IMG/VR virus record: IMGVR_UViG_3300022226_000005
Location: 3,140 to 67,139 of that record
From: a virus
Strand: one strand, 5' to 3'
DNA length: 64,000 nt
In this document: positions 3,076-54,263 of the stretch, in pieces
Numbering within the stretch: position 1 is the first letter of the stretch
Layout of the letters: each line of letters opens with the position of its first letter
Made by a program: the position numbers and the translations under genes
The notes under the pieces: generated by a model
What the model was told of the DNA's origin: nothing
The model's input: the letters and a program-made list of their open reading frames with translations, nothing else
Databases searched by the model: none

Positions 3076-3352
3076 TAACTTTCGGGTCCTTAACTACGAC
3101 AAAGACATTGGGCACATGGAAACCGCGTGGTACAACGACCAGCTTCCTTTTGCTGGGCAGACCATACTACGTACTAACCTCAGGGTACCGCCCGAGTTCG
3201 AATCCGAGCTCTGGACGCGCGACCAACTTCGTCTTTATTGGCTTTCTACCGGCGCGGTCAACGACGTCCCCGCTATCCCACAGTGGGCGATAGATGAGGC
3301 CGAGGACACATACAGCGCATACGAATTCAAAGTCCGGATACGCACCCGCTAA
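3053..3352 (+). CDS. Hypothetical protein, possible tail-fibre assembly factor
   Basis: Tightly packed ORF in the tail operon; function inferred from position only. Confidence 0.5.
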   Translation: MKKMQVYNNFRVLNYDKDIGHMETAWYNDQLPFAGQTILRTNLRVPPEFESELWTRDQLRLYWLSTGAVNDVPAIPQWAIDEAEDTYSAYEFKVRIRTR

Positions 3353-13933: not shown

Positions 13934-14167
13934 ATGATCGACATCATTGTGAAAACTCCGGAGGGTTACACTCTCCGGAATCCCATCTGGAAGGTCCGTT
14001 CCGACAGTGACTTTGCGTTCGTTGATCTTCTTCGTGAGGTCTGCCAAAAGATAGAGGTAGACCCCCGCGAGTTCAAGGTGCAGCTCGATGGTGCCGACAT
14101 GCAGAATGGGGCACTTTGTCTTAACTTTCTTGACCAAGGCGATACCGTGGAGCTGGTAGAGCGGTAA
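13934..14167 (+). CDS. Ubiquitin-like (beta-grasp) protein without C-terminal GG
   Basis: 77 aa; MIDIIVKTPEG...GDTVELVER follows the ubiquitin secondary-structure pattern; GAGG SD present. Confidence 0.55.
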   Translation: MIDIIVKTPEGYTLRNPIWKVRSDSDFAFVDLLREVCQKIEVDPREFKVQLDGADMQNGALCLNFLDQGDTVELVER

Positions 14168-25429: not shown

Positions 25430-25671
25430 TATTTGTCTATGCTCCGACGCCAGGCGGCGTAATCAAAAAGTGGGATTTGTTGCTTTTTCTTTGTTTCTAC
25501 CATGTCCGTATATGTTATTGTAAGGTAAGCGCCTGAAAACTCCAAGTGGTCTAGTCGAAACCAGTCGTATACGTTTATCCACGCAAAAAACTGCTGTTGG
25601 TGTTCGTGTATGAATAGATGGTGTTCTTCGATGAGGTGTACTGCACGTAGTATGCTTTTTGCGTTGTTCAT
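25429..25671 (-). CDS. Hypothetical protein
   Basis: Packed ORF in the minus-strand operon. Confidence 0.6.
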   Translation of the reverse strand: MNNAKSILRAVHLIEEHHLFIHEHQQQFFAWINVYDWFRLDHLEFSGAYLTITYTDMVETKKKQQIPLFDYAAWRRSIDK

Positions 25672-25988
25672 AGTTTGCTCAAAGTTGTGATCAGTTCGTC
25701 GGTGTTGCTTGTTTTTAGTTCAAGTTCTTCTAGTTTTTTGGATGTAGCATTTCGTTGAATATTTTTGGCCGTTTTCCATTCTGATACTGCGGCAGTAAAG
25801 TTTTTGTAATAACCCAGGAACACAACAGTTCCTGCTTTGTATAGGCGGACACGCCACCTTTTTTTGGCTGTCTCATAGTAGATGCCTTTGGGGATTTCAC
25901 GCTTGTAGTGGTGGTAAACTACTTCAGCGGGACTTGTCAACGAGGCGTTTAAAATCTCGCCAAGCGTCGTCGTTTGGTGCGAGCGCAT
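25668..25988 (-). CDS. AP2-domain DNA-binding protein
   Basis: PKGIYY...KRWRVRL......FLGYY....AA motif. Confidence 0.7.
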   Translation of the reverse strand: MRSHQTTTLGEILNASLTSPAEVVYHHYKREIPKGIYYETAKKRWRVRLYKAGTVVFLGYYKNFTAAVSEWKTAKNIQRNATSKKLEELELKTSNTDELITTLSKL

Positions 25989-26343
25989 ATAAGAATATAT
26001 CCAGAATCGAAGGTGTTTCCCCGGAGAAAAATCCCTTGTGTGGGATTTGTTCGCTGTAGAATGTAATTTTGTTTGGTTGAGCTATTAGTTCGTTGACCAT
26101 CATTCTTATGACCGCGCGTTTTTCGGGTTCAATTGGAAAGAACGGCGGGTGTGGGTATTTATCGTCTAGGTATTGAATACACGTTGATAGTCCGTGAATT
26201 TCTAGGTTTTTATCCTGTATTACAATTTGGTGGCTGTTGCTCGTTATTCCGCCTTCTGTTATCAGCAAGGCTTTTTTAGCTAGGCACGCTTTGATTACCG
26301 GGTACATTCGGTGGTCGGGATTGAATATTTTTATCGGTCGCAT
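25924..26343 (-). CDS. Truncated SspA-like (GST-fold) protein
   Basis: IQYLDDKYPHPPFFPIEPEKRA and FFSGETPSILDIFL match SspA segments EYLDERFPHPPLMPVYPVARG and YFLSDEFSLVDCYL as recalled. Confidence 0.7.
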   Translation of the reverse strand: MRPIKIFNPDHRMYPVIKACLAKKALLITEGGITSNSHQIVIQDKNLEIHGLSTCIQYLDDKYPHPPFFPIEPEKRAVIRMMVNELIAQPNKITFYSEQIPHKGFFSGETPSILDIFLYALAPNDDAWRDFKRLVDKSR

Positions 26344-26711
26344 GTGAATGCAGATATCCAGTCAGCTATTTCTTTGCACGAGATTGCGGCCCCGAGGTCG
26401 ATGGGGTTAAACATTTCTTCGCCAGTAAGAATAACTCCATTTTTAGTTCCGAGTCCCACAATAACTGCCACGTTGCGGCCTTCTTCCATTCGACCACGGA
26501 GCCATTTTTCTTGTAGGTCAGACAATGCAGCACTTTGTTTCGTAGTTTGCGGCGGCTTTGAGATAAGCTTGTATTCGACCCAAATGTCTGCCACTGGACC
26601 GCTATAATACGCATCAGGAATCCCAGCGGTGAAACGGTCGCTGATTTTCCAAGTGTATACATCACTCCTGAGGAGGTTTCCAATTTTTCTTGTGTATCCT
26701 GATTCGTTCAA
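26331..26711 (-). CDS. PD-(D/E)XK nuclease (VRR-NUC/resolvase-like)
   Basis: GIPD...IWVEYK motif. Confidence 0.8.
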   Translation of the reverse strand: MNESGYTRKIGNLLRSDVYTWKISDRFTAGIPDAYYSGPVADIWVEYKLISKPPQTTKQSAALSDLQEKWLRGRMEEGRNVAVIVGLGTKNGVILTGEEMFNPIDLGAAISCKEIADWISAFTCDR

Positions 26712-26784: not shown

Positions 26785-27420
26785 TTAGAGGACGCCTTGG
26801 GCCCGCTCTCGCAGGTGCCAGTGGCTTTCCATCAGTTCGTTTTCGCCTACAGCTTTGAGGCGGCAGGTGGGGAACGAAGCAGATGGGTCGAATGTAATCT
26901 CCGTCACCAAGTTGATGGGGAGTTTGCTGTTTTTGTTACATGCGTCCATGTAGGCACCGAAAGATTTCAAAGCGGTCGGCGTTAAGTCCAGGGTGTAGAT
27001 TGGAGCATTTGATTCCGCGTCGGGGGTGACAAGCGCAAGCCGTACTTTGTTTTGGCATGCTTTGCCGCCGCGACCGTTTGCTGCGGAGCCCCATTCGTTC
27101 ATTGGGCACTCTTCGCAAGACGGGGCGATTGGGGTTTCGATATCGCCTGCGGGTTTGAGCTCTTCCTGGTTGGAGCCGGTTGCGGAACAGTCTGGTCGAT
27201 TACTCGACTGGCCGTCCCACATTGCTTTGTAGTACGTGTTGTTGAACCGGTAATCCAGGATTACCGCCGTAAGGGTGTTGTTTTTCACTTTTTCCCCGTC
27301 GGGAAGGGTGAACTCTTTGCCCTTGGTATTGATGCGGCCACCGGAAGCAGGGATGTTTTGCTTTTGCTTTTCGATTTCTGCAGCAATTTGTTTTTGGAGC
27401 GTTGCTAGTTGTTGTGACAT
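26785..27420 (-). CDS. Probable ssDNA-binding/annealing protein
   Basis: PDC..., C..CP.NEWGS, KAC motifs; sits in the replication module; GAGGA SD before ATG 27420. Confidence 0.55.
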   Translation of the reverse strand: MSQQLATLQKQIAAEIEKQKQNIPASGGRINTKGKEFTLPDGEKVKNNTLTAVILDYRFNNTYYKAMWDGQSSNRPDCSATGSNQEELKPAGDIETPIAPSCEECPMNEWGSAANGRGGKACQNKVRLALVTPDAESNAPIYTLDLTPTALKSFGAYMDACNKNSKLPINLVTEITFDPSASFPTCRLKAVGENELMESHWHLRERAQGVL

Positions 27421-27427
27421 AGATTCC

Positions 27428-27793
27428 TCAGTTCGAACGTAGAGATAGTGTGCGTTTTGTAAATGGTCGTAATCCGGGCACGTCTTCGCCCGACTCACGT
27501 AGTTCTCGATACGATCTTACACTTGGGCGACGTTCAAGTAAATGAATATCTCCTGTGCGCATGATGTGTTCGAAAAATACTTCGTCGTTTTCAATCACCG
27601 GGACTACAGATTCCGTGATAGAAACTGTCGCCGTGTGTCCACGAGCCCCTGGCAGGTCCTGCTCTTCGAGCATCGCAAAAATATTTAATTCCTCTTCTTC
27701 CATGACTTTTCGGATTTTTGCTATTTCTGCTTCGAGCTCGCGCTTTTTTTCGCGCAGTGTGTGGAGTTTGTCGATGGCCGCGCCTAAATTCAT
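27428..27793 (-). CDS. Conserved replication-module protein with N-terminal coiled coil
   Basis: Coiled coil, LLERRPS and VPGL motifs; synteny between helicase and SSB. Confidence 0.6.
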   Translation of the reverse strand: MNLGAAIDKLHTLREKKRELEAEIAKIRKVMEEEELNIFAMLEEQDLPGARGHTATVSITESVVPVIENDEVFFEHIMRTGDIHLLERRPSVRSYRELRESGEDVPGLRPFTKRTLSLRSN

Positions 27794-40749: not shown

Positions 40750-41304
40750 TTATCCGTGTAGTTGGTGGTAACAGTGTTGGACCATTATGGCCTGTTTGAT
40801 TGCATCATCTCGTGCATCGTGCGCGGTGCCCGATTCCACGTTGGGCATGGGGTCATCTGGGTATGCGAGTTCGATAGTTGTTCTGAGAGACCGGTGCTGA
40901 TGGTATGCAAAAGGTGAATTATCATTAATTGACTTAAAAGCATGATTGAGAATGACGATATCAAAATCAGGGTCGTTTGCATAGTATCTGTCTGCTGTTT
41001 TGCTTTCTAACCACATTCTGTATTTTAGAAGGGCTGTGTTAAGGGGCATCAGAGGATCACGGAAGAGTGATTTCTGGGCGTCTTTTGATTGTTTGAGCCA
41101 CCACTCAATTGTGCTGGCGCTCATGGTTCGCCCGAATTTTTCGTTTGATTCGAGCGAAATGTTTACGTTGAACGAGTGTTTTGCTAGAGATTCGTGCGAA
41201 TCTTTTCCCGCTACATCGAAGTGGACGGCACCGATGGATACGATGGCGGCGGTTGGTATGACGTCCATCGTTTCGATGTCGACCATTATTGCGGGTCTTT
41301 TCAA
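40750..41304 (-). CDS. DEDDh 3'-5' exo(ribo)nuclease
   Basis: MVDIET, IVSIGAV, TIEWW, FDIVIL, HDARDDA; GGAG SD and TTGA overlap. Confidence 0.88.
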   Translation of the reverse strand: MKRPAIMVDIETMDVIPTAAIVSIGAVHFDVAGKDSHESLAKHSFNVNISLESNEKFGRTMSASTIEWWLKQSKDAQKSLFRDPLMPLNTALLKYRMWLESKTADRYYANDPDFDIVILNHAFKSINDNSPFAYHQHRSLRTTIELAYPDDPMPNVESGTAHDARDDAIKQAIMVQHCYHQLHG

Positions 41305-42029
41305 GTTAGAACTCCGGTTACGGTTATTGATATGCGGAGTTTGATTCCCGCATTTGCTGTAAGGTGCCAAACACATGGTGGGGAATCCCAGACGTCGCCT
41401 GATTTCCAATTAGTGACGAATGTTTCTTTCATTTGTATGATGTGCCCAATGTGCCAGTCTGATACGGCAATGATGCGGCGGCCGATAAGACCTAGATCGC
41501 ATTTTGAGTTTGCGCGAGCTTCGGCGGCTGTCATATTTTTTTCAGTGAATTCAGACGCCATTACTAGGTGTGGGTTGATGTGTGCGTTTCTGTCGCGCCA
41601 GCCTTGCATCGTGTCTGAGTGCCAGGGGATTATTGATCCGGGTGGCATTACGAGTAGGCGGCATAGGCAGTTGTCCCATTGCATTCCTATTTTTTCGAAG
41701 GCTTCTTTTCCTCCTATTAGGGCTTTTATGTCGTTGTTGCTTGTGCCGAGTACGCCCCAGTTTGCGTGGTATGTGTTGTTTTCGTCGTAGCCTACTGTGG
41801 CTGGTAGCCCGCTACCTTTGATGGTTTCTCCATAGTGGTAGTCTTGGAGTTTTACGCAGTGTTCCTGGCATATGTCTCGGTTATCTAGCATATATTCGTA
41901 AACTGTGGGGTATAGGTTTCCCAAATTTGTTATGTGTTCGATTTGGTGGTGCCCGGTAGATAGTCCGTTTTGGGTATAGTCTAGCCATTTTTGCCCACTT
42001 CCGTTTTCAATGTAGTCCCAGAGATTCAT
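41301..42029 (-). CDS. Cupin / Fe(II)-2OG oxygenase-like protein
   Basis: RLLVMPPGSIIPWHSD (HxD), W..GDVW, WHLTANAG, distal R in RISITVTG. Confidence 0.75.
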   Translation of the reverse strand: MNLWDYIENGSGQKWLDYTQNGLSTGHHQIEHITNLGNLYPTVYEYMLDNRDICQEHCVKLQDYHYGETIKGSGLPATVGYDENNTYHANWGVLGTSNNDIKALIGGKEAFEKIGMQWDNCLCRLLVMPPGSIIPWHSDTMQGWRDRNAHINPHLVMASEFTEKNMTAAEARANSKCDLGLIGRRIIAVSDWHIGHIIQMKETFVTNWKSGDVWDSPPCVWHLTANAGIKLRISITVTGVLT

Positions 42030-44219: not shown

Positions 44220-44311
44220 TAGAACCGATCGGATTCGAACCGATGTCTGCTCAATCCGCCCTTATTACCAGGCTTCAAGCGAGCCGTGTTTCCTTATTAC
44301 ACCACGGTTGT
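44220..44311 (-). tRNA. tRNA-like element with 19-nt anticodon-loop insertion (nominal Ser-UGA)
   Basis: D stem GTGT/ACAC, anticodon stem GCTCG/TGAGC enclosing 26 nt, T arm ATCGG-TTCGAAT-CCGAT; C-C mismatch at 2:71; no CCA. Confidence 0.55.
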
Positions 44312-44362
44312 TTGGGCTACGAGCCCACCTCCGTACACGCTTCTCATAAGCGCTTTGAGGGT

Positions 44363-44593
44363 TCATTTGGTAGGGTGTTTCGCTAGTTGGCTTTTCAGGT
44401 TGCGTACCTGATAGGCGCGTTTGGCGAGCGCTTTGTTGGCGCGTTGGACTTCACCCAGGTAAATAAGTGATTGTAGGCGGTAACGATCGGCGAGGCGAGC
44501 GTTTTCTGTGGCCAGGTTTTTGTAGTAGCCGAGATGGCCTTCGAAGTTGGGTTGTTCGGGTTTTTCGATGAGTTTCAGGTGTTGTTGGGACAT
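44363..44593 (-). CDS. Small coiled-coil protein
   Basis: GAGGA SD before ATG 44593. Confidence 0.6.
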   Translation of the reverse strand: MSQQHLKLIEKPEQPNFEGHLGYYKNLATENARLADRYRLQSLIYLGEVQRANKALAKRAYQVRNLKSQLAKHPTK

Positions 44594-44628
44594 GTTGTTT
44601 CCTCTTGGTATGTGCGAAGTGCGAAGTG

Positions 44629-44698
44629 CGTAGCGCCACGGGATCGAACCGCGCCGTTTTAGTTTTGGAAACTTAACCGCCCCTTGGCTGAGCGCTAC
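44629..44698 (-). tRNA. tRNA-Trp(CCA)-like with reduced D arm
   Basis: Perfect acceptor GTAGCGC/GCGCTAC, T arm CGCGG-TTCGATC-CCGTG, loop TTCCAAA; 3-bp D stem with 4-nt loop; no CCA. Confidence 0.6.
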
Positions 44699-44704
44699 AT
44701 TGGT

Positions 44705-44776
44705 TGGTTGCGGGGGGTGGATTTGAACCACCGAGGTCCGGGTTATGAGCCCAGATTGAGACCGACCTCCCCCGCC
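44705..44776 (-). tRNA. Initiator-type tRNA-Met(CAT) with reduced D arm
   Basis: CTGGG-CTCATAA-CCCGG (three G-C pairs), 1:72 mismatch, T arm, encoded ACCA. Confidence 0.8.
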
Positions 44777-44863
44777 AGAATTTGCTCCGTGTTTGTTCGG
44801 CTGTCCTACAGCCACTCACCATCCGAGCAAGAAAATGAGAGGATCACGGCGTCCTTCGTGCTC

Positions 44864-44940
44864 TGGCTCCAAGAGCTGGGATCGAACCAGCGACCATCGC
44901 TTTAACAGAGCGGCGCTCTACCTGTCTGAGCTATCTTGGA
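44864..44940 (-). tRNA. tRNA-Asn(GTT)
   Basis: Canonical 77-nt cloverleaf with encoded CCA. Confidence 0.95.
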
Positions 44941-48158: not shown

Positions 48159-48821
48159 TTACAAATCGTCTATTTCCCAGATTTCGGCGGTGTCTCCTTC
48201 GATAACCAAGACTTCGGAGGTGCGCCCCAGGCAATCAATCTGGAATGAGTTTCCTTTAGTAACGATGCCAGCTTTGGCGTTGTCAGGCCTATAATTTGAA
48301 TGACCCACAATTTGTCTTGTCTCAATTGGCTCAAACTCCTTCCACCAGTCGCACCAGTATAAACCACCGATTGAGTCCCGTCCGCCTCTTGCACGCCCAA
48401 TCTGATTGAAGCTTCCTTTAGCGAGGTATTCTTCGAGGGTTTCATTTCGGTCCTCTAGTAGTTTTGCGGATACACCAGCGTGAGAGATGAGCCAGTTATC
48501 TATCCATATGTAGTCCATGAGCGGGGTCATATCAACGCTCCAGTTGACCCGGTTTTGTAGTTCATATGAGTACCCGGAGCATTGCATTGTGGGGTCGAGG
48601 TAGCTCATTTCGTGGTTGCCGCGTAGGGCCCATACACGGTCGGGGTGTAGGCGCGCAGCGTTAGTGACGAGGTTGATTGTGTGCAGCTGTTCGAGCATCG
48701 AGCGATCGAAGCTATCGAGATAATCGCCGATAAACACTACCATGTAGCCTTTTTTGTCGAGGATAGTTTCGACGATTTCGTATTGGCCGTGGAGGTCACC
48801 TACTACGACTAGTTTTTTCAT
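48159..48821 (-). CDS. Calcineurin-like metallophosphoesterase
   Basis: GDLHG, GDYLD, GNHE, SHAG, VGHS. Confidence 0.92.
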   Translation of the reverse strand: MKKLVVVGDLHGQYEIVETILDKKGYMVVFIGDYLDSFDRSMLEQLHTINLVTNAARLHPDRVWALRGNHEMSYLDPTMQCSGYSYELQNRVNWSVDMTPLMDYIWIDNWLISHAGVSAKLLEDRNETLEEYLAKGSFNQIGRARGGRDSIGGLYWCDWWKEFEPIETRQIVGHSNYRPDNAKAGIVTKGNSFQIDCLGRTSEVLVIEGDTAEIWEIDDL

Positions 48822-53829: not shown

Positions 53830-54263
53830 GTGTATCTCCTGTTGAGTTCATAGTAATGACCAGTGCGTCGCGCAGTGACGCTGTACTTCGTACTATGTAC
53901 ACAGCACGTTGTCAGGAATCTTTGGGGCCCCATATTGGCGTTGCACTTTGTACGTCGTGCTGTGTGACTTCGAACCGGTCGGGGAGTGCAAAGTTGGCGA
54001 CGGGGGTATGTGGAATGGAGACGACCATAATGCTAATTTTCGCCGAAAAAATTTTTTTCAGAAATTGCTTGCTAAATTTATTTTTTCTGTGCGCATGCGG
54101 AGAGTAGTGTATACTCCCCGCATGCAGCACCGCGCACCTCGCACTTCGCACCACCCAAAACGCCCGTGGACAGCCTACTACCGCCTGTATCGCGCGAGGA
54201 TGTTTCTGGGAGGTGCGAAGTACAAAGTGGCAGCCCCGCAGCCCATCAGGCAATAATGCGACT
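53830..54263. other. Divergent non-coding region, candidate genome end or pac region
   Basis: Lies between early arm and terS; A/T tracts 54045-54087; hairpin 54093-54125; heptamer repeats. Confidence 0.5.

Follow-up and report, generated by a model that had tools for sequence, protein, structure and literature searches.

SspA-family proteins have so far been known as bacterial RNA polymerase accessories, and Francisella duplicated SspA into MglA-SspA and added PigR. The locus described here raises the question of whether a phage can encode a stripped-down SspA of its own and use it together with a DNA-binding partner. The window (the whole stretch of DNA analysed, 64,000 nt) covers bases 3140-67139 of the 68,696-bp IMG/VR virus record IMGVR_UViG_3300022226_000005, which is rated complete and comes from sediment metagenomes. 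Near the distal end of its early gene block, three overlapping minus-strand genes encode proteins of 126, 139 and 106 amino acids (aa), and the 139-aa product is hereafter called mini-SspA. A sequence-only reading had picked out this open reading frame (ORF), with its PHP motif and its overlap with an AP2-domain ORF, as a phage SspA mimic that would either co-activate late promoters with the AP2 protein or poison host SspA dimers. The observation is confirmed: the ORF contains KYPHPPFFPIEPEKRA, the peptide quoted in that reading, QYLDDKYPHPPFFPIEPEKRA, corresponds to residues 57-77, and the overlapping gene encodes an AP2/integrase-type core as judged by its model and structural matches. The interpretation is partly supported, as set out below.

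The AlphaFold model of mini-SspA, built with eight homologues as the alignment, has a predicted local distance difference test (pLDDT) value of 89 and shows a thioredoxin-like N-domain (beta1-alpha1-beta2-beta3-beta4-alpha3), a Pro-rich linker and four C-terminal helices. The whole 139-aa chain superposes on glutathione S-transferases (GSTs; VIA Z ~13), and the GST fold is complete but minimal, with a shorter alpha4-alpha5 hairpin and without the C-terminal helices of SspA. The sequence-only reading had stated that much of the GST N-domain is missing, which overstated the loss, since alpha2 is the only N-domain element that is absent. Because alpha2 is deleted and the Glu-Ser pair is replaced by Gly-Leu, the glutathione site is lost; Gly is found at this place in 57 of 88 family members, and the family alignment shows no conserved Cys, Ser or Tyr at the N-terminus of alpha1. 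By the features of a catalytic cytosolic GST glutathione site (alpha2, cis-Pro, Glu-Ser and a catalytic Cys, Ser or Tyr), mini-SspA does not qualify as such an enzyme. Even full-length SspA lacks transferase activity (PMC7515715).

Structural comparison left SspA, zeta and tau GSTs tied (VIA Z 12.6-13.6), and the class assignment of mini-SspA therefore rests on sequence. The top PDB and NCBIfam matches of the 139-aa protein were SspA and MglA (E 4e-6 and 9e-6), with SspA 3lyp (E 4e-6) and MglA as the best PDB sequence matches. SspA was also the best NCBIfam model; the equivalog NF007016 matched at 25.2 bits over residues 42-85 only, compared to a cut-off of 314, and the protein thus falls outside the SspA equivalog, which calls for a full-length match of ~210 aa. 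A profile was then ranked that was made from 51 distant family members, excluding His-bearing and close-subfamily sequences. Nine SspA-clade chains came out on top (1yy7 at 72.7 bits, E 2e-19; E. coli SspA at 70.5), zeta GST was the next class at 59.2 bits, and the alignment to SspA ran over residues 7-130 with two deletions, one at alpha2 and one at the alpha4-alpha5 hairpin. A maximum-likelihood tree was made from 69 sequences, with E. coli and Allochromatium SspA among the SspA-like proteins and with two zeta-like sequences plus six GSTs of E. coli as outgroups. In it, the SspA-like proteins and the mini family formed one clade apart from the outgroups (support 97/95), a grouping to be read with the caveat that the outgroups are few and the SspA-like rows were chosen by similarity to the query profile. 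The mini family was monophyletic in this tree (98/92), and the SspA model was the best match for 8 of 10 full-length hits without PHPP. The profile ranking and the tree bear out the sequence-only reading in placing the protein with SspA instead of ordinary GSTs, and by these comparisons mini-SspA is a phage-encoded, minimised derivative of the SspA clade.

The mini family is previously undescribed. A search of 5.8 billion proteins returned only eight close homologues, while an exhaustive profile search of 1.84 billion representatives gave 141 matches, ~90 of which are 126-190-aa proteins aligned along their whole length. These make up ~90 clusters at 50% identity from metagenomes and prophages. 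No members were found in GenBank phages, PHROGs or BFVD, and 50,697 GenBank phage records held no DNA or protein relatives, the weak matches being host sspA only.

E. coli SspA contacts region 4 of sigma-70 as well as the beta' zinc-binding domain through R65, R82, F83, P84, H85 and P86 (PMC7515715). With a numbering offset of 20, these residues correspond to K45, K62, Y63, P64, H65 and P66 of the phage protein, and the E. coli SspA dimer contacts Y78, E81, R96, G97, R100 and L101 correspond to Y58, D61, R76, A77, R80 and M81. Both sets are conserved above average in a permutation test with 68 family members (p 0.012 for the RNA polymerase-contact equivalents, p 0.03 for the dimer-contact equivalents), and some of these residues are probably conserved for structural reasons. 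Across the family, Y58, R/K62, Y/F63, P64, P66, P70, P73, R76, A77, R80 and D115 are strongly conserved. K45, K62, Y63, P64 and P66 are invariant in the close homologues, and the His of PHP is kept in seven of the eight that were aligned, or in nine of ten when two further representatives are included.

The partner is one of a family of 65 small proteins, 68-106 aa in length. The model of the AP2-like protein (pLDDT 83.5) has strands at residues 36-39, 44-51 and 54-61 and a helix at 64-80, all at pLDDT >90, and shows the fold of an AP2/integrase domain, namely a three-stranded sheet on a helix with a basic strand. Its closest structural match was the GCC-box domain 2gcc (VIA Z 4.2, root-mean-square deviation 2.0 A over 49 residues), followed by the DNA-binding (arm-binding) domains of the HPI, Tn916 and lambda integrases and the AP2 domains of TEM1 and WRI1, with Z values that are all modest. 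Pfam AP2 (PF00847) did not match the window protein at E <= 1, although two of seven relatives matched at E 1.5e-5 and 4 of the 65 carry a precomputed PF00847 assignment; the protein also matches PHROGs of HNH endonucleases in their AP2-bearing parts (E 1e-5). The family core reads LPxG(I/V)(W/Y)(Y/F)E..R.R(Y/W)RVRLY...V...SY...T..EA and is followed by a variable linker, after which a short amphipathic C-terminal motif recurs across 63 members. The tail has low pLDDT when the protein is modelled alone.

The start codon of the AP2-like gene is uncertain. Starting at the ATG, the gene overlaps that of mini-SspA by 65 nt and its product gains a confidently modelled helical N-extension, while the in-frame TTG would leave an overlap of 17 nt. 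The arrangement with a long overlap is also found in related locus L005 (68 nt), and 106-aa products are also found in close relatives (P0153 and P0154). In L005 (1009-1329), the public call of 62 aa (1121-1309) is in the wrong frame, and the real product is a 106-aa AP2-like protein.

Two mini-SspA chains were modelled with residues 25-106 of the AP2-like protein in three runs, along with three controls. The complex scored 0.89 in all three runs compared to 0.00-0.02 for the controls; in calibration on known cases, 58 of 80 solved complexes passed the mark for this score, as did 2 of 110 mismatched pairs. The partner had a pLDDT of 72-73, and 60-75% of the contacts were common to the runs. 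The tail makes the sole contact on the AP2 side (residues 86-94, 96-97, 99-100, 102-104 and 106) and is predicted to dock across the dimer, touching one mini-SspA subunit at alpha4, alpha5 and the beginning of alpha6 (72-85, 92-99, 106-108 and 114) and the other at its beta3-beta4 hairpin (35-36 and 45-50). The PHP residues (64-66) lie outside this predicted interface. The C-terminal tail of Francisella PigR (111 aa) sits on the open face of MglA-SspA, and the PigR contact is weakened by mutations at T47, P48, Y63, R64 and K101 of MglA and at K65 and V105 of SspA (PMC5630020; PMC9304144). By alignment, the MglA residues correspond to positions 34, 35, 50, 51 and 88 of the phage protein and the SspA residues to positions 53 and 93, and all seven are at or beside the predicted tail site.

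The cassette stands at the distal end of a 29-kb early/replication block that runs on the minus strand from ~53.5 kb down to 24.5 kb of the window and encodes DNA polymerase A, a DUF5906 primase-helicase, PDDEXK_1, a SNF2 helicase and DUF7307, as well as a MoxR-type ATPase with a DUF2201 VWA-like protein. The plus strand carries the structural genes, among them those for terminase, portal, major capsid protein and a 1646-aa virion protein. The cassette locus turned up in no RNA run. As the sequence-only reading had noted, the phage appears to bring no RNA polymerase or sigma factor: neither sigma-70 region 2 nor region 4 was found anywhere in the 68.7-kb genome, and the scan of the large ORFs yielded no RNA polymerase family. 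A Pfam search for a T7-type RNA polymerase also returned nothing; its control was silent too, and it carries no weight alone. A late-gene activator would fit the position at the end of the early operon together with the absence of a sigma-70 domain in the genome and of an RNA polymerase among these ORFs.

We tentatively favour, at somewhat less than even chances, the reading that the two proteins form a phage-supplied SspA/PigR-like transcription module that acts with the host sigma-70 RNA polymerase. Since the phage has one mini-SspA gene, the platform would presumably be a homodimer. In the proposed mechanism, mini-SspA probably forms a dimer, and the AP2 tail would sit in a groove to which one subunit contributes alpha4/alpha5 and the other its beta3-beta4 hairpin, so that the AP2 domain would remain available to DNA and the PHP face would stay uncovered. 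The SspA linker face of the dimer would then be presented to the host sigma-70 RNA polymerase. Its production would come at the end of the 29-kb early/middle operon, and the module would turn on the late structural operon.

Candidate sites for such a switch were sought in the late region. K-mer enrichment over 12 late intergenic regions did not find a repeated operator at late genes and yielded a single pattern, AAGACAWWG. It occurs in 7 copies compared to 1.8 expected, at 3102, 11043, 16970, 23398, 23505 and 54771 on the plus strand and at 14114 on the minus strand; the six plus-strand copies fall in the late region, and several lie just after stop codons. It was rejected as a late operator, as the pattern was post hoc, had no extended conservation and had no fixed -10. 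At the head of the plus-strand late operon, an island of 145 nt (53914-54058) is 80% identical to a related 75-kb phage (G002), while the flanks do not align. The island holds a 30-nt identical block, TTTGGGGCCCCATATTGGCGTTG(C/T)ACTTTG, and a palindrome, GGGGCCCC, which occurs exactly once in the window and abuts a -10-like CATATT; the -35 region is not conserved, and an A6T6 element lies further on. This island is a candidate late promoter/operator. A more specific form of the transcription reading, which we regard as doubtful, is a portable promoter-recruitment device in which a two-fold symmetric (AP2)2-(mini-SspA)2 assembly would bind an operator at a single late promoter, with the GGGGCCCC island as the candidate, while the PHP face holds the sigma-70 holoenzyme. 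If this were true, mini-SspA would count as the first SspA-family RNA polymerase adaptor encoded by a virus, and its 139 aa would be a minimal version of the fold.

Several results weigh against a transcription module, in addition to the tie between GST classes in structure, the sampling of the tree and the lack of a repeated late operator. In the wider family, the position of the PHP His is held by Y in 17, E in 13, H in 12, A in 8, S in 8 and F in 7 of 88 members, and only P-x-P is kept; the copy in the Allochromatium prophage described below has PYP. The sequence-only reading had named a lack of PHP conservation among phage homologues as a sign against itself, and thus its expectation held for the close homologues and failed for the family at large. 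MglA, an RNA polymerase-bound protein, has PFP at this position by alignment. Conservation of the tail groove was not above average (p 0.13 with the same 68 members). Since a solved complex of this kind exists (6WEG), the high complex score shows likeness and may partly reflect the model's memory of that fold. The cassette also lies within a replication/recombination module, directly behind a nuclease-like gene. The order PD-(D/E)xK-like, mini-SspA, AP2-like, with overlapping stops and starts, was found in 13 of 13 related loci, which were sampled from both the mini-SspA and the AP2 sides and have mini-SspA identities down to ~20-25%. This upholds the linkage with AP2, which the sequence-only reading had wanted checked in relatives; however, the block from PDDEXK_1 to AP2 is syntenic as a whole throughout one phage lineage, and adjacency is therefore weak evidence of a functional link.

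The same gene order bears on the best of the alternatives, a DNA-metabolism module with no link to RNA polymerase, in which a mini-GST dimer would couple the AP2 subunit to the PD-(D/E)xK-like protein as a site-directed nuclease or a recombination/replication factor. The nuclease-like gene precedes mini-SspA in all 13 loci, the cassette closes a block that encodes PDDEXK_1, SNF2 helicase, DUF7307 and a Cys-rich protein, and phage AP2 domains are best known in HNH homing endonucleases, in line with the PHROG matches. The stop of the 126-aa gene overlaps the start of mini-SspA by 13 nt in the window. However, the nuclease assignment of the 126-aa protein is tentative, as it comes from a motif, while Pfam gave no match and the PDB profile search was likewise empty, and the nearest relatives of the mini-GST are RNA-polymerase-associated proteins. 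In addition, phages commonly place a late regulator after a resolvase-type gene, as lambda does with Q behind the nin region. We consider this alternative unlikely.

A regulated DNA-binding switch would also work without RNA polymerase contact. Here the GST-like dimer would sequester and release the AP2 regulator through its tail, as glutamine synthetase does with TnrA/GlnR and Ure2 with Gln3, and might be gated by a ligand such as ppGpp. The predicted contact is indeed made by the tail and not by the DNA-binding domain, and GST folds are protein-binding scaffolds for varied targets, with FzlA matched by 16 of the 51 family members. In Francisella, ppGpp gates the binding of the PigR tail to MglA-SspA (PMC5630020). 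Such a switch does not account for the linker/RNA-polymerase face having the strongest conservation of any surface segment, and we consider it improbable.

The conserved dimer-interface counterparts Y58, D/E61, R76, A77 and R80 could instead serve to pair mini-SspA with host SspA via alpha3/alpha4, which would either disable SspA or make an MglA-SspA-like heterodimer for the phage. The host of a related prophage has SspA, and heterodimers of SspA-family proteins exist in Francisella (PMC1891329). However, the complex model is confident with a mini-SspA homodimer, and the alpha4-alpha5 hairpin, which packs at the interface, is shortened. For the poisoning of host SspA dimers in particular, which the sequence-only reading had offered as one option, no specific support emerged, and an anti-SspA role is decidedly improbable. 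Finally, a working glutathione-dependent enzyme or redox protein, for which the full thioredoxin-like N-domain and the GST fold could be cited, is highly improbable in view of the lost glutathione site, the missing catalytic residue and the fact that SspA itself is no transferase.

The coordinates of the cassette are collected in the table.

Table. Features of the mini-SspA/AP2-like cassette, in window positions.
Feature	Position	Strand	Basis
126-aa PD-(D/E)xK-like protein (putative; E3, GxPD33, E46-x-K48 and Q67 invariant)	26331..26711	-	motif; PHROG 35651, E 4e-13
mini-SspA, 139-aa minimal GST-fold protein, SspA clade	25924..26343	-	sequence matches, model, profile, tree
Codons P64-H65-P66-P67 (counterpart of E. 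coli SspA P84-H85-P86-P87)	26143..26154	-	alignments to SspA
65-nt overlap of the mini-SspA and AP2-like genes, different frames	25924..25988	-	ORFs
AP2-like DNA-binding protein, 106 aa from ATG at 25988 or 90 aa from TTG at 25940	25668..25988 (stop included)	-	model, structural and family matches
AP2/integrase-type core, residues 33-80, three strands and a helix; G35, R44, R46, V47, R48 and Y60 invariant	25749..25892	-	alignment, model
C-terminal tail, residues 84-106, KKLEELELKTSNTDELITTLSKL; predicted docking peptide 86-106	25671..25739	-	complex model

The hosts named for relatives are Gammaproteobacteria. Two of the related loci are in bacterial assemblies, one in a metagenome-assembled genome of a gammaproteobacterium and one, a prophage, on a 528-kb contig of the cultured purple sulfur bacterium Allochromatium humboldtianum DSM 21881 (L015; NZ_JABZEO010000001.1, 346506-357144). 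The Allochromatium genome also encodes a full-length SspA (L018, 295 bits). Among IMG/VR sequences, a narrow-alignment search returned only the one relative already known. In some relatives, a tyrosine integrase with an HNH protein (L006, 8846-10619) or a large serine recombinase (L022, 6493-8046) is encoded shortly downstream of the cassette, and the lineage therefore includes temperate members; neither a tyrosine integrase nor a large serine recombinase was seen in this window. Since the Allochromatium prophage is in a cultured strain, the idea can be tested at the bench.

Other features of the early region were recorded as well. A conserved protein of ~210-237 aa (26785-27498, minus strand) follows DUF7307 in all relatives, has no Pfam family and carries an invariant Cys cluster, C..C-x2-C..N.W.S...GKAC.N.V, within which the pattern GKAC(Q/K)NxV(R/K) is specific enough to retrieve prophage copies in bacterial genomes. 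A protein with an Rv2179c-like 3'-5' exoribonuclease domain (E 2e-38) and a calcineurin-like phosphoesterase are encoded at 40750-41409 and 48159-48821 on the minus strand. Three tRNA-like genes lie at 44220-44940 (minus strand), namely Asn-GTT, Met-CAT and one that has a four-base anticodon 'tgaa' according to ARAGORN.

Zeta GST/maleylacetoacetate isomerase has the same fold as mini-SspA at equal structural scores and is the second-best profile class, but it scores 13 bits below SspA, falls outside the clade of SspA and the mini family, and is a glutathione-binding enzyme. E. coli and Yersinia SspA (7C97, 6WMU and 1YY7) share with mini-SspA the ER(F/Y)PHPP linker, the dimer-contact residues and the absence of a catalytic glutathione site, whereas the phage protein is a third shorter, without alpha2 and the C-terminal helices and with a short alpha4-alpha5 hairpin. 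No description of a phage-encoded SspA homologue was found in the literature, where the sole phage paper that surfaced concerns SspB.

Phage P1 is similar in concept, in that a phage DNA-binding activator, Lpa, and an SspA-type protein act on sigma-70 RNA polymerase at late promoters; P1 borrows the SspA of its host, while the phage described here encodes mini-SspA. Lpa was rejected as a relative of the AP2-like family (hhalign probability 0.06), and a P1-like repeated -22 element was not found in the late intergenic regions of this phage. The closest parallel is Francisella MglA-SspA/PigR (PDB 6WEG and 6WMT), in which an SspA-family dimer with GST fold is the platform and the tail of a small (~100-aa) DNA-binding protein occupies a site formed by both subunits, as is predicted for the phage. 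The Francisella platform is a bacterial heterodimer of ~205-210-aa subunits and PigR is a winged-helix protein, whereas the phage system is virus-encoded, has one gene for subunits of 139 aa and has an AP2-type partner. A phage with its own stripped-down SspA and a tail-docking DNA-binding partner would represent a new route of viral transcription control, and mini-SspA would show the SspA fold reduced to its smallest functional core.

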